In this document: positions 2,225-59,510 of the stretch, in pieces
Layout of the letters: each line of letters starts with the position of its first letter
Numbering within the stretch: position 1 is the stretch's first letter
Source: Asterias amurensis
Taxonomy: Eukaryota
DNA: 64,000 nt
Reading direction: 5' to 3'
NCBI RefSeq assembly: GCF_032118995.1
Contig: NC_092655.1
Coordinates: 14,525,223-14,589,222, forward strand
Position numbers and translations under genes: made by a program
The notes under the pieces: generated by a model
What the model was told of the DNA's origin: nothing
Database searches by the model: none
What the model saw: the letters and a program-made list of their open reading frames with translations, nothing else

Positions 2225-3353
2225 AGCCTTGCATTAGAACTATTACTCCTGAGGCCTTTTGGCCAGCCAGGGCTGTATTTTACAATATTCTACAATCCTG
2301 TTATCTTTCTCAACTCCCTGGGGAGTATTTGGACCGAGCTGCCGTGACATTCTGAAGGCTTTTTCAAGCAAAATGCCCCTGTGTGAAAAGAAACATTTTA
2401 TAGTACTTAAAGCATCCTGCTCAAGGATACAAGTGTCATGACTGGGACTCGCACCCACCTTTCGATGACTTAATCATCACAGCTTGAATTTGATGCTCTG
2501 AACTACTTTGTCTTTACATTCAAGATACTCCATAGATATGGACATGGCCTGACAACACTTTTAAATAATACATATGAAATATCCATTCTAAAGTTCTTAT
2601 TCTTGCATAGTATCAGAACTGCTTCTTCCCAAAAAGTAACCATCGTCCCATGTTCTTTGATTATTGTCTACCGCCCACCTCGAATTCAACACTGGTCCTA
2701 TTCCTACACTCGCTACAGAAAACGCACCTTCTTGGTTGCCGCACACGCTCTCTGAAACAACCTTCTCATCCACATACCGTCCACATACCACACCTTCCCT
2801 ACTACATTGTTTGATTCTGTTTTAACCCTTTCACTTTTGTGCGCATGCCATTTAAAATTTGATAAACGTAATAAGGAAGTGTTCACTCATGCAGAAAGTC
2901 TGAGGGTTGATTTGGTAGAAATTAAAAAGCTACGACATTGGTCCATCAATACTTAGTGGCAGATTTTTTGTAACTTACGACAAATCCATTTCTAAGTAGG
3001 ATTTGAAACTTTGCATGGTGGAGATAAGATATAGAAGAGTTTGCGGTAACACCATGTAATAATAATCTTTAAATGAGTTAGGGTGGTTCTGAAAAGAACC
3101 GTTGGGTTAACTCTTTAAATCCATTTCTGATATGTTTTTCTAAATGTATACGTTTTTTGTAAACACCCTGTGTACTCTTTCAACTCTATAGTGTATACTC
3201 TCTATATTCTTACCATTGCACTCATAAAAATTCATTATTTGTGTATTATTTTCATTGTATTGTGTATTTAATTCCTTTTATGTTTCAGCGCTATATAAAT
3301 GCATGCTACTAGTATTAGTATACAATTCTCATGACACCATCCTTCTTTTCTAG

Positions 3354-3486
3354 ACGAGAGCTGGATCTATTTGCCAATGTCGTAAGGTGTAATACTCTAC
3401 CTGGAATTAAGACGAGACACAGTGATCTGGACTTGGTAGTTATCCGTGAACAGACAGAAGGGGAGTACAGTGCATTGGAACATGAG
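3354..3486 (+). CDS. IDH3B: IDH3B-like exon
   Basis: (R)[43 protein letters not shown] matches the conserved NAD-IDH beta/gamma core (LDLYANV..SLPG..TRH..D..I.RENTEGEYS.LEHE). Acceptor ttttctag at 3351-3353, donor GTAACT at 3487. Confidence 0.85.
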
Positions 3487-4164
3487 GTAACTAGTTTCTT
3501 ATATAGGAAAACCCGTTTCAGACATGCGCGCCAGAGTTGAGCCAAACCAAATAAACACATTAACAAAAGTAAGTCGCCCCCAAACAATTCGTCATAACAT
3601 CGTAGGGTAAAACATTTCACAAATACAAATAATTAAGAAATAATTCTATGACATGTTTCCTAAGTGGTGTATGAAAATGAAAGACGTTCATGAATTCATG
3701 GCTGAATGAGCTCAAATGGAAGACAAAAACTGCCATTCTTAAATGTGTTGATGTGTTTAGATGAGTCCACCCAAATCAATTTTCAGAGTGGCGAACTAAA
3801 CATAGCATTTACATTGGCTCGACTCAAGACAAGCTATGAAGGCATCTCCCTTGTGGTGAACAGGTCAGGCAAACCAGCTGATGACAGAGCTGCCTGCCGC
3901 CTATGGAACGGTCTGCCTGTCACCTTCAAAAAGGGTCTAACGTCTCACCTGTTCTTCAATCTGTAGCTGGTTGTCACCATCACTTTTGTCTTTCTTATCT
4001 CCTTATAAGCGCCTTGCATCCTTTGGTAATTTGGCACTAAATAAATCCAGTATATCCAGATCAACATCTTAAACAAAGGGGCTTCAGAGTCGTTCCGATC
4101 AAATGCAACAGTCAATCTTTTGTGTCCAGTTGCTCCTTACTGATTTCAGTCGTCAAACTGTTCA

Positions 4165-4510
4165 TGAACTTTTTGTAACACAAAACACAATGTCCACAGA
4201 TGTACATTCAACCTACACCGTTTGAAGATAATGATAATGGAAAGCTACCCTTAAAATATTAGGTGCTGAGGTGCTTTAGTTTTTGAGAAATGAGTAAACA
4301 ATGTCATGAAAATACATTTTTACACGCTAAAATAATTTTTGTCTCGTGATCAGTGAGACAAAAATTATTTTCATGACATTGTTTTACTCATTTCCCCAAA
4401 ACTACAGCACCTCAGCCGGTAATTTTTTCAGGGAAGCTTCCTACTATCTTTATCTTCAAACTGTGAGTTTAGTGTAAATCTGTGGACATTGTGTTTTTGG
4501 CCGACAAAAA
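4165..4510. mobile_element. Palindromic MITE family M4 (TIR caaaacacaatgtccacagat)
   Basis: Near-perfect long inverted structure around a tgtctcgtgatcagtgagacaaaaa centre. Sister copies at 5395-5750 and 7745-8155. All three lie in consecutive IDH3B introns. Confidence 0.65.
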
Positions 4511-5188
4511 GACCCTTTAATCGGAAGTCGCACCTTTCTGAAACATAACTGGGCCCAATTTCATAAAGCCTGCAAGCACAAACACTTTCTAAGCACAGAA
4601 TTGTATTGCCTTAGCAGAAACAGATGTTACCAGCCAAAATTACATAACAGTGATCAATCAGTGAACAATTTCCCTTGAATAGCATAGCAAAATGTATCAG
4701 TTGCTACTGGAAAACCATCATTTCTATCTAGCCATATGGTGTAGTACATTCCTATAGTTGTACTGTAAGGTGCAAAGTGCGTGATCAGGAACAAGTGAAA
4801 AAAGTGCATTCAGTGTGCACAAAACAAGTTCAGTCAAAGTGTTTTGCTACGCAAAATTGACGATGAAATTGCTAGCACTCTGCCAACTGATCCTTATGTC
4901 GGCAGTCTCCTTTTTTTGTCAATTTGTTCGGGGTGCCAGTTCAGAAGCAATAGACAGATCCATTAGGCTCTGCCCACGACGCACTTGTGAGGAAGAACAC
5001 GTGGTGCTCTCCAATACCTTTCTGCACAATCTGCCGCGTGCGTCAAGCATACGCGCATGACGCATGTCGGACCTTATTTGTTGGACCTTCGTGGCAGTGT
5101 GATTGGTCAATACGCAATGGGGCGGAGCTTAATGGAGCGGTCTCCTATTCCACCTGTAACTACCACATTCCTTTCTTTTTGTTGACAG

Positions 5189-5322
5189 AGTGTTCCAGGT
5201 GTCATTGAATGTTTGAAGATAATCACAAGGGACAACTCATTGCGGATTGCTAAGTTTGCTTTCGACTATGCCACAAGAAACAATCGCCACAAAGTAACTG
5301 CGGTTCACAAGGCTAACATCAT
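5189..5322 (+). CDS. IDH3B: IDH3B-like exon
   Basis: [44 protein letters not shown](M) against beta-subunit [24 protein letters not shown]...[12 protein letters not shown]. Acceptor ttgacag, donor GTAAGT at 5323. Confidence 0.9.
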
Positions 5323-5394
5323 GTAAGTCTAACATTGTCTTCAGTACATTGGGGTATTATTCTAGAAATAGCTGTGAAGTTTAAAGGGTCTAGG

Positions 5395-5750
5395 TACTTT
5401 TTGTAGGACAAAAAACACAATGTCCACAGATTTACACTAAACTTACACAGTTTGAAGATAATGATAGTAGAAAGCTTCCCTGGAAATATTACTTGCTGAA
5501 GTGCTGTACTTTTTGAGAAATGGTTAAAACAATGTCATGAAAATAATTCATGAGACGAAAATTATTTTGAGCATGTAAAAACGTTTTATCATGACATTGT
5601 TTTACTCATTTGTCAAAAAAAAACGCACCTAAAAAAATATTTCAAAGTACCCTTTCTATTATCATTCAAACTATCATACTATCTTCAAACGGTGTAAAAA
5701 AAGTTTAATGTAAATCTGTGGACATTGTGTTTTGTATCACAAAGAGTACC
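5395..5750. mobile_element. Palindromic MITE family M4 copy
   Basis: Same TIRs (aacacaatgtccacagatttacac ... gtaaatctgtggacattgtgtt) and internal palindrome as 4165-4510. Confidence 0.65.
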
Positions 5751-6711
5751 CAAATTCTTTCAAGCCAGGTTCATACTTCCTGCGAATGCGAATGCATTTT
5801 GATGTCACAAATTCGCAATGAATAATTCGCATCAGTTGATTTGTGCTCAACCTTGCTACCATGAGCAGCGCGCTGTATCACGCTAGCTCTGCTAGCTTTT
5901 TATGACTTTTATTACACACAGCGCATCTAGCCTGTGCGCGACTAACGCCCAAATCACAACAGATCAACCACAGGACTAATTGTAATATTCCTTATATTTG
6001 GATATTTTGGAGTTACACTTCCAGGGGTTATGATCGAGCAAGGCATGCTGGGAAAAAATGGCGCAGCGAGATCGATCACCCCTGGGAACGAGGTTGATTT
6101 GTGCTCAACTCCCGTGAAACGCAGCTATGTGACGCCAAATTTTGCTTTGCATTCACATGCGCAGGAAGTATTAACCGGGCTTTACATTCAGTACATTATT
6201 CAGTACATTAGGGCATAATTCTAGAACTAGCTGTGAAAGATACACAGTCAACGTTGTCCATATCACCATTAGAATCTAGGCACATGCTTACACCATGCTA
6301 CTTTTCTGGTGTTAAACACTTCTGGGTGGTTCCGTAACCTCAAAATAACAACCATTTAGAACAACTGCGGACATAGCGTACATAGAAAGTGTGACGCTTT
6401 ACTGTGATTCCTGTACACCAACTAAAACTGTAGACAGGAGATTTATTGAGAATTTTTGAGCAAGTTTGGACAATGTTTCATTTAGACTCCCAAACAGTCG
6501 AATCAATTATAACACACAGTTGATGTCAACAGAATAGTTTTTATTTGAATTTTTGAGAAAACATTATAATCTGTTGCAAACTTGTTACCAAACCAAAATT
6601 AAAAAAGGGTCTTAGAAAAAGAGTTTAAGCAGAGTCTTTTTCCTCAGGCCACTTTTTCTTTTTCTAACACAAAAACACGATGGTTATGAAATTATTGTGT
6701 TATTTATACAG

Positions 6712-6961
6712 GAAACTCGGAGATGGTCTTTTCTTGAACAGCTGCCGTCAGATCTCAACCCTTTACCCCAAGATCCAGTTTGAGTCGATGATTGTGGATA
6801 ACTGTTGTATGCAGCTAGCGTCTAACCCCCACCAGTTTGACGTACTGGTGACCCCCAACCTGTATGGTAACATCGTGGATAATCTTGCCGCTGGCTTAGT
6901 GGGAGGAGCTGGAGTGGTACCGGGGGAGAGCTACTCAACTGAATATGCCATATTCGAGCCT
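6712..6961 (+). CDS. IDH3B: IDH3B-like exon
   Basis: (M)[83 protein letters not shown]. This is near-identical in pattern to vertebrate IDH3B (KLGDGLFL...[54 protein letters not shown]). Donor GTAGGT at 6962. Confidence 0.92.
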
Positions 6962-7609
6962 GTAGGTTGAAATAAGTAAACTTTTATTATTTATTAGTGT
7001 TTTTATATAATTCTGGTAATGAAACCAAGGATGACGATACCAATTTTAGTGGTGGGATCTAAATCCAATTTATTCCACCCAGGGCGAATGTTTAGGTATG
7101 GGGCCATCACTGCTGAAGTGCAATCTGGGGGAAATCTGTGCTGGGCAGCACTGTGTATCTTGCTCAGAGTGCTGGGCAAATTATTTTGGTTCTGGTGGCT
7201 ACTCTAAGCGAACTTTAATAATCACTGTAGTTGGTTGGCAAGCCTGAGGAAACCTGTAAACAAGGGTGCTTGCCGCGTAAACCAGAAACACCGGGGTTAA
7301 CCCCGACTCTTGATAAGTGTTTTGGGTTCTTTTACGTGCACTATCAATCCTAGTATATGGGACTCACAGCTTAATGCCCAACAGACGGACAAAGCGATTA
7401 TGGTAAAGTATCTTGCTCAAGTACACAAGTGTCATAACCCACACTCTGCTGATCAAAAAAACCAAAGCTTGAGTCCGGTGCTCTTAACTGCTCGCCCAGG
7501 ACTTGCCAAATCTTGTCTGTTGGTTGGTCCTCCCAATGTTGTAAACAAGCAATTGTGTATTTTTAAGAACCATTGGTAACTTCTATAAACATGTTGTTAT
7601 TTGGATCAG

Positions 7610-7704
7610 GGAGCCAGACATACTTTCTCAACAGCTGTTGGTCGTAACATCGCCAATCCAACTGCAATATTGCTCTGTGCTGCCAACATGCTCAAACACC
7701 TACA
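7610..7704 (+). CDS. IDH3B: IDH3B-like exon
   Basis: [31 protein letters not shown] against [31 protein letters not shown]. Acceptor cag at 7607-7609, donor GTGAGT at 7705. Confidence 0.85.
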
Positions 7705-7744
7705 GTGAGTATCAGCGTTTCATATTTTGTTTAAAGGGTTTGGG

Positions 7745-8155
7745 TACTTTTTGTTGGACACAAAACTCAATGGCCGCAGATTTAAATTGAACTTACATGG
7801 TTTGAAGATAATGATGGTAGAAAGCTTCCCTTACAACATTACTTGCTGAGGTGCTGTAGTTATTGAGAAATGAGTAAAACAATGTCACAAACATAATTTT
7901 CATCTCAGTGAGACGAAAAATGTTTTAACATGTAGAACGTATTACCCAGTTTTGGTATTTATACCAAAATACACCAAAACTTTTATATATGTTTTACATG
8001 CTAAAACTGAGACGAAAACAATTTTTGTGACACTGTTTTACTGATTTCTCAAAAAACTACATCACCAGCAAATAATATTTTAGCGTAAGCTTTCTACTAT
8101 TATTCGTTTAAAACTATTTAATTTTGATGTAAATCTGTGTAAACCAAGTAAATTA
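7745..8155. mobile_element. Palindromic MITE family M4 copy
   Basis: Ends tgttggacacaaaactcaatggccgcagatttaaa ... atgtaaatctgtg. Same family as 4165 and 5395. Confidence 0.55.
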
Positions 8156-8668
8156 AACGTCAGGCACAAGTGTTATATGAGTAAGATTTGAAACTTTGCA
8201 CGGGGGCGGGAACACACAGTAAGGGTTGCAGAAGCACCATGTACATAAATGTCTCTACAAGTTGTGGTGATTCTGAAAAAAACCGACAGTTTGACAACTT
8301 GACATTTCCATCAGTATGATTGGACCATCTTCAGGAGTGTGCTGGACTTTGTTGCTTTGTGCTGTTTAATTTATACGTGCAGGGGCCAATTTAATGGCTC
8401 TGCTTACCGAATTCTGCGCTTGCAATCACCATTCTCCACTATTAGTGTAAGCGCTGAACTTCTGCACCAAGCAAAGAATGCCTAATATTAACGTGGGGTG
8501 TGACGCGCACAATCACAAACTCCCTGCTAACCTGTGAACTACGCTTGACTTAAAGCAGGGAGTTCCCTGCTTCCATAAGTTCAGATTCTTCAAAGCCATG
8601 AAAGTTGGCACAGGAGAAGACAAAGTTGTAAACTTATTTCCCGTTTTTCCTCTCTTTGCTCCCGACAG

Positions 8669-8729
8669 TTTGGACTCATACTCAAATCTCATCAATACTG
8701 CTGTGAAATCCGTTCTGAAAGCTGGCAAG
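8669..8729 (+). CDS. IDH3B: IDH3B-like exon
   Basis: (H)LDSYSNLINTAVKSVLKAGK against beta-subunit [21 protein letters not shown]. Acceptor cccgacag, donor GTAAGA at 8730. Confidence 0.75.
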
Positions 8730-9782
8730 GTAAGAAACAAAAATGGCCTGAGTCTGTCTTTCCCTTTTCCTCTCTTTAACAAGCTCCAGCCCTCCTCTAG
8801 ATCCTTTGATTTCCCATTCATAAATATCTCAGACAGTTTCGCTATTCATATTGGTGGAGAGCGTGTCACGTTGGTGTGCATGAACCTTTGTTTATGATCA
8901 GTAAAAAGTGTTGAAAACATGGGCGTGACACACGCGCTTGCACCTGTGCTTATAAGACAGTTTCTCCATTCCTATTGGTCAAGAGCAACGGCTAAAAAAG
9001 TTGTGCAACATCACGCAATACATGCAAAGGGCACAGCATCTCCTTATAAGGAGTTGTTTACCCGAGGGCCTTACCTTTTCATAGCTGGAGGGGTGTTGTG
9101 TTGAACGAAATCATTGAACATTTATAACTTGTGCATTTATTTTACCTTTTGACCAAGAAGTGTTGATGTTTTTTTACCGAAAAGGTATTTATGAATGGGA
9201 ATCAAAGTGTGTTGAATCGGTTTTCAACTAGTGTTTTAAACCTGCCAAGGCCTGGTTCTTGATAATTTACCTCGACTTCGTCTCGTTAAAATTATCAAGT
9301 CCAGGCCAAGGCGCGGGTTTAAACCACTAATTGAAAACCTCTTCACCACACATTGACTCCCTTATTCAAAACTGTATCCTGTATTACAATCTTCATATCC
9401 CTCCTCTTTACCTTTGCCCCTTTATAGGCAGTGGACACCATTGGTAATTACTCAAATAAATTGTTAGCATACAACCTCTGGTAACAAACAATGGAGAGCT
9501 GTTAATAGTATAAAACATTGTGATAAACGACTCCCTCTGAAGTAACATAGTTTTTTTTAGAAAGAGGTATTTTCTCACTCAAATATTAAAAGACTTCAGC
9601 TGAAGCCTTTTTATTTTTACCTGAAGGCACACAAATTTATACAACAAGGGTCTTTCATAATTTTCTAGCAACTTTGATTACCAACTGAGCCCGAATGTTC
9701 ACAGGCTTGTTATTTTATGCAAATAATGGGATACACCTAGTGAGAGTACTGGTCTTGACAATTACATGTACCAAACCTGTCC

Positions 9783-12430: not shown

Positions 12431-12815
12431 TTAAAGGCAGTGGACACTATTGGTAATTAATCAAAATAATTATTAGCACAAAACCTTACTTGGTAAGAAG
12501 TAATGGGGAGAGATTGGTGGTATAAAACATTGTGAGAAACGGCACCCTCTGAAGTGCCATAGTTTTCGAGAAAGAAGTAATTTTCCATGAATTTGATTTC
12601 GAGACCTCAGATTTAGAATTTGAGGTCTCGAAATCAACCATCTAAATGCGCACATTTCGTGTGACAAGTGTGTTTTTTTCTTTCATTATTATCTCGCAAC
12701 TTCGACGACCAATTGAGCTCAAATTTTCACAGGTTTGTTATTTTATGCATATGTTGAGATACACAAAGTGAGAAGACTGGTCTTTGACAACTACCAATGT
12801 GTCCACTGTCTTTAA
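12431..12815. mobile_element. MITE family M1 copy
   Basis: ttaaaggcagtggacactattggtaatt ... ctaccaatgtgtccactgtctttaa, with the internal palindrome gatttcgagacctcagatttagaatttgaggtctcgaaatc. Confidence 0.75.
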
Positions 12816-13589
12816 TTGGTGGCATGCAGAAGCTTGATAATGGGGGTAAGGTGTGGTAGGGTTGGGATGAGGGTATCCAGTACACCCTTAATCAGCTGTA
12901 CCCCAATTTATAATTTTTTGAAATGTAGGTGAATTTATTTAAATGCCTGCTGGAAGCTGACTGCTGGAAAATGTCTTAGTGTTAAGATGGCCCAATTTCA
13001 TACAACTGTTTCAGCAGCAAATACTGCTTACCAATATTCTTTGCTAAGCAATGTCTTTGCTAAGCAAACCATTAGCGGGGCACCAGTTGCAACAATGTAA
13101 ACTTTATTGAATTTTGTCTGGTAGCCTACTGGTTTTGTATTTCTGTGCAAGTTTTTATGCTCACCAACAAATATGTTCCATTGGGGGAGAAACAAAATGA
13201 TAAACGATTTATTTGAAAATAAAAATAATTGATTTGTTTTTTTAGCAATTGCATGAGAAAGAATGTCTTTAGAATATTTAAAACAGTTAGACAAAAATTC
13301 AATATTTTGATATTTTCAAGGAAATTAACCACAACTGCGCTGGAGCGCCACCAAGCGACAAAGTTGATGGTGCATTACGTCGTCTGCACTACACACACGT
13401 CGTAAACACAATACATACGGCATAGCATTACATCATGTACACATTTAAACATAACTTAAAAAGTCAATCGATCGGGTGTGGTACGTGTTGCTGTTGTGTT
13501 GGTATCGGACCTGCGTTGTTTTCTCCACTTTTTACAGACTTAAACCAGTTAAATTTTAACTTAAAACTTCTTTGAAAACGTGGCGAGCA

Positions 13590-13645
13590 ATGGCTGGGGA
13601 ATTGTGAACATCGGTCCAGTAGAGTTTGTTCACGTTTTAGATGTG
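13590..13645 (+). CDS. MVP: MVP start-codon exon with an apparent 1-bp frameshift
   Basis: ATG at 13590 gives MAGEL and then a stop. The +2 frame gives GIVNIGPVEFVHVLDV followed by a GTGAGT donor at 13646, matching the MVP N-terminus (IIRIPPYHYIHVLDQ) and joining in phase to exon 2. Adding one G to the GGGG run at 13596-13599 restores MAGGIVNIGPVEFVHVLDV. A possible acceptor ttttacag at 13538-13545 suggests an upstream non-coding exon. Confidence 0.6.
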
Positions 13646-13739
13646 GTGAGTTCGTGTATTTTGAGAGAACTGTTGGTAGTTGCATGTTTTACACTCTAGT
13701 CTACATGTAGGTAGGATAGGATTTTAGGAATACAGTTGT

Positions 13740-13955
13740 CACTCAGATTTCGGTTTCGTCCGCTATCGTCTCCGGTTATGGGAGACGATAGCGGATGAAA
13801 CCGAAATCGTTCTAGGAGTAACTCAGACCATGCTCAGACCATGCTCAGACGGGGGCTGGTTACTCCTAGAACTTTTTCAGTTTCGTCCGGCTATCGTCTC
13901 CCGTTATTACGAGAGACGATAGCCGGACGATACCGAAATAGTTCTAGGAGTAGGG
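13740..13955. repeat. Compound foldback element (two perfect hairpins nested inside a larger inverted repeat) in MVP intron 1
   Basis: tttcggtttcgtccgctatcgtctccggttatgggagacgatagcggatgaaaccgaaa and tttcagtttcgtccggctatcgtctcccgttattacgagagacgatagccggacgataccgaaa are flanked by the inverted pair ctaggagtaac / gttactcctag. Confidence 0.7.
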
Positions 13956-14685
13956 GCTGGTCATCTCGCCACCTACAGCAAGCTCGCCACCAATAAAGTC
14001 CCCCTGCAAAAAAAAAAAAACGGCTTAGTTTTGGTTTACTGGCTCAATTTTGACCTCCTTGATGTAAGCACAGAATTCCCTGCTTCTGTAAAGTGCAAAA
14101 GGTACAAGCAGAGTCATGAAATTCAAATTGGGAACTATGAGGTTTGTTCTGCTACCGTCTTCACAAGGAGATGATAGCAGAATGAACATCATACTGTAGT
14201 TCTATGAGTAGACAGGATTACGATTACTCCTAGTAGAACTCTGACTATATGAGGTTGGTTCCGCTATTGGCTCCAAGAATAGTGGAGCAGGTAATGATTA
14301 TCAGACCTAAGACTAATAATAAAACACCTTTAGCGCCAAATCCATTACAAATGCCCCCAGGCGCTTTACCACATAAAGAAAAATCATAAAAAGGTCAAAA
14401 AAAAAGTAAACAAATAATAATAAAACACAGTTTTACAGTGCAGTCATTTGCTTGTTGTGTTGTATCATTGGAACTTCATCGATTTCAAACCATCTTGAAG
14501 TCAGCCAATTAAGCCTGATTTTGAAGAGTCACAGCCTTAAAAAAAACACAAAAAAAAACATTTCAAAGACCGGGGGAGGGGAAGGGCTTTGAGGGTAATT
14601 GTTGTGATAATCGTAACCTTCCATCCTCCTGATAGCCTAATGTTCCAAATTCTGTCTGTACTTCAGTTGACTTTATGTTGACTGT

Positions 14686-17220: not shown

Positions 17221-17354
17221 GGAACAAATATAACTCGTCTTGAGGTCGGGCCAAAGAGGCTGATGTTACAGAACAATGAGCAGTTGGTAGCCGGACCTAT
17301 ACCATGTGTTATTGTTCCTCCTGGTCACTACTGCCGCATCAAAGACCCAATGAG
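17221..17354 (+). CDS. MVP: MVP exon 2
   Basis: GTNITRLEVGPKRLMLQNNEQLVAGPIPCVIVPPGHYCRIKDPM against MVP [44 protein letters not shown]. Acceptor tttatttcag, donor GTAATA at 17355. Confidence 0.9.
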
Positions 17355-38379: not shown

Positions 38380-38625
38380 TTATAGAAAGGTTTGTGGTAA
38401 TACCATGTAATGACTATCTCTAATGAGTTGAGGTGGTTCTGAAAAGAACCGTTGGTTTCAACTCTTGAGTTGAAACCAACAGTACTTTTTAGAACCAACC
38501 CAAGAAAACCAGTTGTTCTTTTCAGAACCACCCCAACTCATTAGAGATAGTCATTACATGGTGTTACCGCAAACCTTTCTATATTGTATTTCCACCATGC
38601 AAAGTTTCAAATCCTACTTAAGCTG
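38380..38625. mobile_element. Palindromic MITE family M8
   Basis: ggtttgtggtaataccatgtaatgactatctctaatgagttgaggtggttctgaaaagaaccgttgg ... ttcagaaccaccccaactcattagagatagtcattacatggtgttaccgcaaacc. Copies at 45270-45495, plus partials at 2990-3120 and 8190-8290. Confidence 0.65.
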
Positions 38626-41199: not shown

Positions 41200-41380
41200 A
41201 TCAATAGAGAGAGCTGCTGCTCATGATGCTGCCAGGAAGGAGCAAGAAGCCAGAGGGGTCTTGGATCGACAGAAACTGATGAATGAGAACGAAGCTGAGA
41301 AACAGAGGACCTTGCTGTTTGAGTTACAGGCAGAAGCTGCAGCTATAGAGTCTACTGGCCAGGCCAAAGCAGAGGCTCAG
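41200..41380 (+). CDS. MVP: MVP exon 22 (coiled-coil region)
   Basis: (K)[60 protein letters not shown] against MVP [60 protein letters not shown]. Acceptor tttattcag, donor GTATAC at 41381. Confidence 0.93.
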
Positions 41381-44300
41381 GTATACACAACCTTTGCAGA
41401 ATTATCAAAATGGATAACGCTGTATTAACTGAAACTACTGAATTGTCGTGAGGCAAGCTGCAGCTATAGAGTCTACTGGCCAGGCCAAAGCAGAGGCTCA
41501 GGTATACACAACACTTGCAGAATTATCAAAATAGATAACACTGTAATAACTGAAACTACTGACTTGTCGTGAGGCAAGCTGCAGCTATAGAGTCTACTGG
41601 CCAGGCCAAAGCAGAGGCTCAGGTATACACAACACTTGCAGAATTATCAAAATAGATAACACTGTAATAACTGAAACTACTGACTTGTCGTGAGGCAAGC
41701 TGCAGCTATAGAGTCTACTGGCCAGGCCAAAGCAGAGGCTCAGGTATACACAACCTTTACAGAATTATCAAAATAGATAACACTGTAATAACTGAAACTA
41801 CTGAATTGTCGTGAGGCAAGCTGCAGCTATAGAGTCTACTGGCCAGGCCAAAGCAGAGGCTCAGGTATACACAACCTTTACAGAATTATCAAAATAGATA
41901 ACACTGTAATAACTGAAACTACTGAATTGTCGTGAGGCAAGCTGCAGCTATAGAGTCTACTGGCCAGGCCAAAGCAGAGGCTCAGGTATACACAACCTTT
42001 GCAGAATTATCAAAATAGATAACACTGTAATAACTGAAACTACTGAATTGTCGTGAGGCAAGCTGCAGCTATAGAGTCTACTGGCCAGGCCAAAGCAGAG
42101 GCTCAGGTATACACAACCCTTGCAGAATTATCAAAATAGATAACACTGTAATAACTGAAACTACTGAATTGTCGTGAGGCAAGCTGCAGCTATAGAGTCT
42201 ACTGGCCAGGCCAAAGCAGAGGCTCAGGTATACACAACCTTTGCAGAATTATCAAAATAGATAACACTGTAATAACTGAAACTACTGAATTGTCGTGAGG
42301 CAAGCTGCAGCTATAGAGTCTACTGGCCAGGCCAAAGCAGAGGCTCAGGTATACACAACCTTTGCAGAATTATCAAAATAGATAACACTGTATTAACTGA
42401 AACTACTGAATTGTCGTGAGGCAAGCTGCAGCTATAGAGTCTACTGGCCAGGCCAAAGCAGAGGCTCAGGTATACACAACCCTTGCAGAATTATCAAAAT
42501 AGATAACACTGTAATAACTGAAACTACTGAATTGTCGTGAGGCAAGCTGCAGCTATAGAGTCTACTGGCCAGGCCAAAGCAGAGGCTCAGGTATACACAA
42601 CCTTTGCAGAATTATCAAAATAGATAACACTGTAATAACTGAAACTACTGAATTGTCGTGAGGCAAGCTGCAGCTATAGAGTCTACTGGCCAGGCCAAAG
42701 CAGAGGCTCAGGTATACACAACCTTTGCAGAATTATCAAAATAGATAACACTGTATTAACTGAAACTACTGAATTGTCGTGAGGCAAGCTGCAGCTATAG
42801 AGTCTACTGGCCAGGCCAAAGCAGAGGCTCAGGTATACACAACACTTGCAGAATTATCAAAATAGATAACACTGTATTAACTGAAACTACTGAATTGTCG
42901 TGAGGCAAGCTGCAGCTATAGAGTCTACCGGCCAGGCCAAAGCAGAGGCTCAGGTATACACAACCTTTGCAGAATTATCAAAATAGATAACACTGTATTA
43001 ACTGAAACTACTGAATTGTCGTGAGGCAAGCTGCAGCTATAGAGTCTACCGGCCAGGCCAAAGCAGAGGCTCAGGTATACACAACCTTTGCAGAATTATC
43101 AAAATAGATAACACTGTAATAACTGAAACTACTGAATTGTCGTGAGGCAAGCTGCAGCTATAGAGTCTACTGGCCAGGCCAAAGCAGAGGCTCAGGTATA
43201 CACAACCTTTGCAGAATTATCAAAATAGATAACACTGTATTAACTGAAACTACTGAATTGTCGTGAGGCAAGCTGCAGCTATAGAGTCTACTGGCCAGGC
43301 CAAAGCAGAGGCTCAGGTATCAAAAACCCTGGCAGAATTATCAAAATAGATAACACTGTAATAACTGAAACTACTGAATTGTCGTGAGGCAAGCTGCAGC
43401 TATAGAGTCTACTGGCCAGGCCAAAGCAGAGGCTCAGGTATCAAAAACCCTGGCAGAATTATCAAAATAGATAACACTGTAATAACTGAAACTACTGAAT
43501 TGTCGTGAGGCAAGCTGCAGCTATAGAGTCTACTGGCCAGGCCAAAGCAGAGGCTCAGGTATACACAACCCTTGCAGAATTATCAAAATAGATAACACTG
43601 TAATAACTGAAACTACTGAATTGTCGTGAGGCAAGCTGCAGCTATAGAGTCTACTGGCCAGGCCAAAGCAGAGGCTCAGGTATACACAACCTTTGCAGAA
43701 TTATCAAAATAGATAACACTGTAATAACTGAAACTACTGAATTGTCGTGAGGCAAGCTGCAGCTATAGAGTCTACTGGCCAGGCCAAAGCAGAGGCTCAG
43801 GTATCAAAACCCTTGCAGAATTATCATAATGGATACACTGTCTGTAATAACTTAAACTACTGAGTTGTCTTGAAGCAAGCTGCAGCTATAGAGTCTACTG
43901 GCCAGGCCAAAGCAGAGGCTCAGGTATCAAAAACCCTGGCAGAATTATCAAAATAGATAACACTGTAATAACTGAAACTACTGAATTGTCGTGAGGCAAG
44001 CTGCAGCTATAGAGTCTACTGGCCAGGCCTAAGCAGAAGCTCAGGTATACACAACCCTTGCAGAGATATCAAAATAGATTACGCTGTCTGTTATAGCTAA
44101 AACTACCCAAGTTTTCTGAAGCAAGCTGCAGCTATAGAGTCTACTGGCCAGGCCAAAGCAGAGGCTCAGGTATCAAAAACCCTTGCAGAGTTATCAAAAT
44201 AGATAACGCTGTCTGTTATAGCTAAAACTACCCAAGTTTTCTGAAGCAAGCTGCAGCTATAGAGTCTACTGGCCAGGCCAAAGCAGAGGCTCAGGTATAC

Positions 44301-44615
44301 AAAACCCTTGCGGAATTATCAAAATAGATAACGCTGTCTGTTATAGCTAAAACTACCCAAGTTTTCTGAAGCAAGCTGCAGCTATAGAGTCTACTGGCCA
44401 GGCCAAAGCAGAGGCTCAGGTATACAAAACCCTTGCGGAATTATCAAAATAGATAACGCTGTCTGTTATAGCTAAAACTACCCAAGTTTTCTGAAGCAAG
44501 CTGCAGCTATAGAGTCTGCTGGCCAGGCTAAAGCAGAGGCTCAGGTATAAATAACCCTTGCAGAGTTATCAAAATAGATAACGCTATCTGGTATAACTAA
44601 AACTATGGTCAAGCC
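41332..44615 (+). repeat. About 27-unit tandem array of a 120-bp unit made of the last 49 nt of exon 22 plus the first 71 nt of intron 22 (5' splice site duplicated in every unit)
   Basis: Unit: gcaagctgcagctatagagtctactggccaggccaaagcagaggctcag|gtatacacaac.tttgcagaattatcaaaatagataacactgtaataactgaaactactgaattgtcgtgag. Unit 0 is the genuine exon end, which reads gcagaagctgcagct. Subfamilies are visible (gtatacacaacc, gtatcaaaaaccctggcag, and 123-bp units with gctgtctgttatagctaaaactacccaagttttctgaag at the distal end). The ORF track shows no ORF of 60 aa or more across 41428-44753. Confidence 0.9.
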
Positions 44616-47538: not shown

Positions 47539-47646
47539 GCGGAGCTTCTGGGGAGCCTTGGGATCGAGACTACACTCATAATGGATGGTGACAATCCTGT
47601 CAACTTGTTCAATACAGCCAAGGGCATGATATCAGGGCACCAGTGA
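47539..47646 (+). CDS. MVP: MVP terminal exon, TGA stop at 47644-47646
   Basis: [35 protein letters not shown] against MVP [32 protein letters not shown]. Acceptor ctttgtag. Confidence 0.9.
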
Positions 47647-59336: not shown

Positions 59337-59510
59337 GGGCAACCTCGGTAGTCTAGTTGGTAATAAGACACTGCTCTAGAATTGCAAGGGTCGTGGGTTG
59401 GAATCCCACCCGAGTAACATGCCTGTGATATTTTTTCACATGATTCGAGGAAAGTACCGAGTATACAGTGCTAGCACACATCGGAGTATGGGTAAAAACC
59501 AAAATTAAAA
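59337..59510 (+). mobile_element. SINE family D copy
   Basis: gggcaacctcggtagtctagttggtaataagacactgctctagaattgcaagggtcgtgggttggaatcccacccgagtaacatgcctgtgatattttttcacatgattcgaggaaagtaccgagtatacagtgctagcacac. Confidence 0.55.

Follow-up and report, generated by a model that had tools for sequence, protein, structure and literature searches.

The two halves of the human vault are joined by the R1 repeat found in major vault protein (MVP), which provides Phe6, Ile7, and Ile36 as a hydrophobic patch together with polar contacts (PMC13347060). MVP-like genes are also found in sea stars, where the Asterias rubens protein (XP_033633589.1) opens with MAGIVNIGP... and its Patiria miniata counterpart opens with MAGVVNIGP.... 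The same ATG that opens both of these proteins is present at positions 13590-13592 (+ strand) of the 64,000-nt stretch of Asterias amurensis DNA analyzed here (hereafter, the window), and it represents the ancestral start codon of an MVP-like gene. In the window, this ATG is out of frame with the remainder of the gene, and the feature is an ordinary start-proximal 2-bp frameshift, real or artefactual.

The gene itself is the A. amurensis orthologue of an already annotated echinoderm 'major vault protein-like' gene and a clear MVP family member belonging to a divergent invertebrate MVP-like clade. A first search, for which the query was a rough 296-aa model, recovered nothing beyond MVP fragments of ≤44% identity because the short query retrieved no close full-length relatives. 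This was fixed with a full-length query, for which the top matches were 'major vault protein-like [Asterias amurensis]' (P0121, XP_071792973.1, 826 aa), Patiria miniata at 77% identity, Acanthaster planci at 74%, and, at 50-61%, further echinoderms, hemichordates, and numerous invertebrate 'MVP-like' proteins. The 90% cluster of P0121 includes the A. rubens isoforms X1 and X2. When translated from Met33, the window product is identical to XP_071792973.1 at 826 of 826 residues, and this database protein begins with MLQNNEQ at the exon-2 ATG at 17263. Since exon 1 offers no in-frame ATG, an annotator would choose the Met33 start, and XP_071792973.1 very probably annotates just this sequence; RefSeq would in that case have handled the frameshift by annotating a truncated Met33 protein. 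The domains PF17794, PF01505, PF17796, PF17795, and PF11978 (Vault, Vault_2/3/4, MVP_shoulder) are found in order on the identical XP_071792973.1, Vault and Vault_2 were found by Pfam on the N-terminal 226 aa, and the match to rat MVP structures has an E value of 1e-65. Among the protein matches, two distinct MVP genes are present in each of several invertebrates, for example Mytilus coruscus (P0150/P0152, on one contig), Babylonia (P0173/P0204), Halichondria (P0190/P0201), and Solemya (P0106/P0217), and the window gene groups with the divergent 'MVP-like' copy of those pairs.

A tblastn search, for which the query was a human MVP sequence, located MVP-like exons on the + strand between 17.2 kb and 47.6 kb, and a purpose-written protein-to-genome spliced aligner bore this out, aligning exon 1 (IVNIGPVEFVHVLDV) to human IIRIPPYHYIHVLDQ, with the spacing of HVLD, 7 residues, and (L/V)EVGP being identical to that of human MVP. 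Spliced alignment with the A. rubens orthologue defines a whole coding region of 25 exons at 13590-47646 (+), ending with a TGA at 47644-47646. The A. rubens X1 protein could be followed through all 25 exons from 13598 to 47643 with 17 amino-acid differences and no frameshift or internal stop, and all 24 of the downstream exons are exactly of A. rubens length, which confirms an earlier sequence-only reading of the window (the first-pass annotation) that had judged these exons to be intact and phase-consistent. Exon 2 (17221-17354, +; placed by splice signals and alignment) follows tttcag in phase 0, opens with GTNITRLEVGPK, and contains the ATG at 17263-17265 that corresponds to Met33 of the repaired protein. 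Across 856 codons compared with A. rubens by the Nei-Gojobori method, dS was 0.10 and dN was 0.008, yielding a dN/dS of 0.08. This strong constraint rules out an old pseudogene. A processed or decaying pseudogene was also rejected, given the 25 exons with introns, the single lesion, and the same dN/dS. A chained blastn alignment of the window with the A. rubens locus contained 30,150 aligned non-coding bases with 8.4% mismatches and 440 gap events (192 of 1 nt and 76 of 2 nt), versus 2,494 aligned coding bases with 2.6% mismatches and one gap event, the GG at 13596. Accordingly, 2-nt indels between both Asterias species number ~2.5 per kb in non-coding DNA.

Several other features of the locus were recorded. 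A 121-bp tandem array (26.7 copies, 96% matches) occupies 41334-44582 of the window; its unit, the length of which is no multiple of 3, starts within exon 22, and each copy consists of the last ~47 nt of the exon, the GT donor, and ~74 nt of intron. Consequently, intron 22 harbors ~26 additional copies of a genuine splice donor; it measures 4,139 nt here versus 1,090 nt in A. rubens. The Rfam model 'Histone 3' UTR stem-loop' was matched twice, at 3061-3105 (-) and at 38410-38455 (-), the latter within intron 20 of the MVP-like gene, with scores of 37.4 and 34.8 bits that are barely over the gathering score. No histone ORF was found beside either match, and both are probably part of a repeated element. 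A tRNA-like Rfam match lies 3' of the MVP-like gene (59342-59417, +; 38.8 bits) and could be a tRNA gene or the head of a tRNA-derived SINE. The upstream neighbor, at ~3300-9000 (+), encodes a member of the isocitrate/isopropylmalate dehydrogenase family (PF00180) and lies on the strand of the MVP-like gene. The same neighbor in the same orientation is shared by A. amurensis, A. rubens (L002 1-7157), and Patiria (L001 1-3112), indicating that local synteny is conserved.

Translation of the window shows how the start region is arranged. The ATG at 13590 sits in a strong Kozak context, with G at both -3 and +4, and is followed by GCT GGG GAA TTG TGA, so that it opens a five-codon ORF, MAGEL-stop, at 13590-13607 (+) with its stop codon at 13605-13607. 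The conserved coding part of exon 1, GIVNIGPVEFVHVLDV (13598-13645, +), is 100% identical to A. rubens DNA and lies in the frame of the remaining gene. The frame with codons from 13592 reads GWGIVNIGPVEFVHVLDV up to the GTG/gtgagt donor, for which the intronic portion begins at 13646, and with its upstream part included the same frame reads ...NFFENVASNGWGIVNIGPVEFVHVLDV until the donor after 13645. The R1 strand motif I-x-I-x-P-x-x-[FY]-[IV]-H-[IV]-L-D is present and aligned in this frame, which has no ATG here. Much of what the first-pass annotation proposed therefore stands: MAGEL followed by a stop is what the DNA encodes, the conserved vault N-terminus does lie in another frame that splices in phase to exon 2 at 17221, and both the human MVP alignment and the A. 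rubens orthologue identify this segment as exon 1 of an MVP gene. The parts of its reading that did not survive were a one-base repair of the start, a homopolymer error as the preferred cause, and a different upstream start exon, each of which is considered below.

The size and direction of the lesion became apparent from blastn and from a three-way DNA alignment of the A. rubens and Patiria miniata loci with the window. The start of the gene is ATGGCTGGGGAATTGTG in the window, ATGGCTGGAATTGTG in A. rubens (MAGIVNIGP), and ATGGCAGGAGTTGTA in Patiria miniata (MAGVVNIGP), which align as ATGGCTGGGGAATTGTGAAC (window), ATGGCT--GGAATTGTGAAC (A. rubens), and ATGGCA--GGAGTTGTAAAC (Patiria); the corresponding proteins start with MAGIVNIGPVEFVHVLDV in A. 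rubens X1 and MAGVVNIGPVEFVHILDV in Patiria. The run of four G's at 13596-13599 (+) is GG in both relatives, and the window accordingly carries two additional nucleotides directly after codon 3. Comparison with the MVP proteins of related species, which had been suggested in the first-pass annotation, therefore agrees that the ancestral ATG is out of frame owing to the G run, and it shows a surplus of two bases (GG to GGGG) where a deficit of one had been proposed. Once the two G's are set aside, all 54 bases of exon 1, starting at the ATG and ending at the donor, match A. rubens, which rules out a chance pattern, and the flanking UTR and intron exhibit both substitutions and indels relative to A. 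rubens (blastn). In an N-terminus alignment spanning sea stars, urchins, a brittle star, sea cucumbers, an acorn worm, and a bivalve paralogue, M-x-x precisely precedes the [ILV][IV]x[IV]GP strand in 9 of 11 orthologues. From this conservation of N-terminal length and from both outgroups, we can conclude that removal of the two G's recreates the ancestral state. Addition of a single G, as previously suggested, would yield MAGGIVN..., and was rejected because the A. rubens and Patiria proteins are one codon shorter and because of the M-x-x spacing of the 9 orthologues. The lesion is single and, judged from the unchanged remainder of exon 1, looks young. No compensating in-frame ATG has arisen in the exon 1 coding frame.

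The frame might also be restored by another upstream coding exon or by translational recoding (ribosomal frameshifting), which we regard as very improbable. A conserved acceptor-like ttttacag at 13530-13537 (AG at 13536-13537, rather than ending at 13545 as first reported) and an Acanthaster isoform with an alternative first exon (MSNVMLPVKKE...) speak for it. However, three in-frame stops at 13541, 13550, and 13562 (13541-13564, +) lie between the acceptor and the conserved codons, where the frame reads T-stop-TS-stop-ILT-stop-NFFENVASNGWGIVN..., and these exclude an upstream coding exon joined through ttttacag, including the different start exon envisaged in the first-pass annotation. The Acanthaster first exon had no match in the window, and a scan of the upstream region and intron 1 for exons comprised of an ATG plus a phase-0 donor returned only weak, unconserved candidates, none of them convincing. 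As for recoding, a -1 or +2 shift would be needed, and GCT GGG GAA does not conform to X XXY YYZ. Programmed frameshifting was rejected, since no slippery heptamer occurs in the zero frame (GCT GGG GAA TTG TGA), and slipping by +1 on GGGG leads into a non-coding frame. The surrounding DNA also contains a 12-nt insertion relative to A. rubens (L002 ~9971), TTAAATTTTAAC at 13549-13560, in the presumed 5' UTR ~30 nt before the ATG, a SINE-like repeat (ggcagtggacactattggtaatta...) 0.8-1.1 kb 5' of exon 1 (12440-12820), and two palindromic MITE-like elements in intron 1 (13740-13960) with arms tcggtttcgtcc...gacgatagcgg.

Whether the two additional G's are present in the animal depends upon the reliability of a single consensus sequence, from which the length of the run at 13596-13599 was read. 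The first-pass annotation considered a homopolymer-length error to be the most economical explanation. Residual HiFi errors are mostly of +/-1 in long homopolymers, not of +2 in a 2-base run. Likewise, homopolymer errors are typically recognized by a long run, a length off by one, and error-prone reads, whereas the run examined here goes from 2 to 4 bases in HiFi data. The RefSeq-annotated assembly (GCA_032118995.1), the presumed source of the window, was produced with hifiasm from 22.7x PacBio HiFi coverage and has a Merqury QV of 48.51 (PMC10625585), and it is the only public A. amurensis assembly annotated by RefSeq. A QV of 48.51 equates to ~1.4e-5 errors per base, or ~0.04 errors of any type expected in 2.6 kb of coding sequence, whereas neutral 2-nt indels, at the ~2.5 per kb given above, exceed the error rate by orders of magnitude. 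Taken together, the assembly QV and the natural 2-nt indel rate make a real 2-bp insertion likelier than a consensus error. A. amurensis is also ~1% heterozygous (PMC11090083). We therefore favor, with reasonable though not high confidence, a 2-bp insertion allele that is real, recent, and either null or hypomorphic, and a real frameshift allele, which the first-pass annotation had listed as its second option, is now the more likely of its explanations. An assembly or consensus error, introduced when reads were corrected or the consensus was called, would mean that the animal has GG (MAGIVNIGP...), with a normal gene and a wrongly truncated RefSeq protein; this seems unlikely, although it deserves to be taken seriously. 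The defect falls within a mononucleotide run, everything else in the gene is wholly intact and under strong constraint, and an error could likewise look like a frameshift three codons into a gene with a dN/dS of 0.08. Moreover, the total HiFi depth of only 22.7x is modest, equivalent to ~11x per haplotype, and no independent sequence confirming GGGG was found: a protein search with the short N-terminus found nothing closer than 56% identity, and metagenome contigs scanned for the DNA pattern, with the length of the G run left free, yielded 0 matches.

If the insertion allele is real, as we favor, it would be young, probably segregating, and possibly heterozygous, residing in the haplotype picked by the HiFi assembler. 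Ribosomes initiating at the ATG at 13590 would terminate after MAGEL, and full-length protein would then arise only inefficiently, by either of two routes. One would employ the GTG at 13580-13582 (+), which lies in the conserved coding frame with A at -3 and G at +4 and is the only start-like codon of that frame 5' of the conserved residues. Based upon its sequence context, it is a possible weak near-cognate initiation site, from which GUG initiation may supply a little near-full-length protein (M-ASNGW-GIVNIGP...). When the 39-aa genomic ORF beginning at this GTG was looked up as an exact sequence, no match was returned. The other route would be re-initiation at the ATG at 17263 (Met33), beyond a second mini-ORF. 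This second mini-ORF, MWEQI-stop, is also of 5 codons and is created by an out-of-frame ATG at 13641 once the transcript is spliced; the ATG at 17263 is accordingly behind two mini-ORFs, and its context is weak, with C at -3 and T at +4. Because R1 has no Pfam model, the loss of R1 from a Met33 product was judged by alignment to solved structures, in which residue n of the repaired protein corresponds to residue n+3 of rat/human MVP. By this measure, the Met33 product would be missing the equivalents of human MVP residues 1-35, which is most of the R1 repeat, and it would probably be defective in closing whole vaults. The allele is consequently predicted to be a null or strong hypomorph in a gene on which purifying selection is otherwise strong.

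The same two initiation codons are central to an alternative that we consider improbable, namely that the insertion is fixed and functional, with the ancestral ATG serving as a 5-codon uORF and the protein being made from the GUG at 13580 or from Met33 with a remodelled or shortened R1. The in-frame position and favorable context of the GTG, the use of Met33 by the RefSeq model, and the purifying selection upon the gene body would all be compatible with this scenario. However, A. rubens has the identical GTG in an identical context, although out of frame there, indicating that the codon exhibits no adaptation to such a role. The weak context of the ATG at 17263 and its position after two mini-ORFs also count against it, and exon 1 is unrelaxed (54/54 identical), which argues for a recent change. 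In addition, loss of the equivalents of human residues 1-35 takes away part of the half-vault contact. It seems a slim prospect that the insertion is both fixed and associated with vaults having an R1 waist that is remodelled or largely missing, such as open half-vaults. If this were true, the species would provide a natural experiment on what holds vault halves together, and only then would the locus inform vault assembly. The favored reading of a young insertion allele carries a more modest implication. MVP knockout in mice is reportedly tolerated, and the allele, if real and segregating, would be a further loss-of-function variant close to a start codon, in a marine invertebrate that is highly polymorphic. 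Of more immediate practical relevance, the public A. amurensis MVP-like protein XP_071792973.1 is without 32 conserved N-terminal residues owing to a 2-bp difference, and comparisons of vault N-termini would be misled by this truncated entry.

Overall, the A. amurensis gene is most similar to its A. rubens orthologue (XP_033633589.1, LR699100.1), with which it shares 25 coding exons, 24 of them of the same length, 98% amino-acid identity, the Iso_dh upstream neighbor, and an exon 1 that is identical save for the G run. The two differ in that A. rubens has GG and an open MAGIVNIGP... start, whereas in the window the run is GGGG and the frame is closed. Relative to the window gene, XP_071792973.1 differs in silently missing the 32 conserved N-terminal residues of exon 1, with no frameshift flagged. 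Compared to vertebrate MVP (rat/human; PDB 4HL8, 7PKR, 3GF5), the order of the R repeats, shoulder, and cap helix is alike, while the window product has ~45-49% identity, an N-terminal motif offset by 3 residues, IVNIGPVEFVHVLD in place of IIRIPPYHYIHVLD, and an additional GGGYGEGDIRKLAYFESSID segment in exon 14. As in the general class of start-proximal frameshift alleles, an indel near the AUG creates a mini-uORF and an in-frame downstream AUG is present; the difference from the rescued alleles of this class is that rescue is here a prediction from sequence context.
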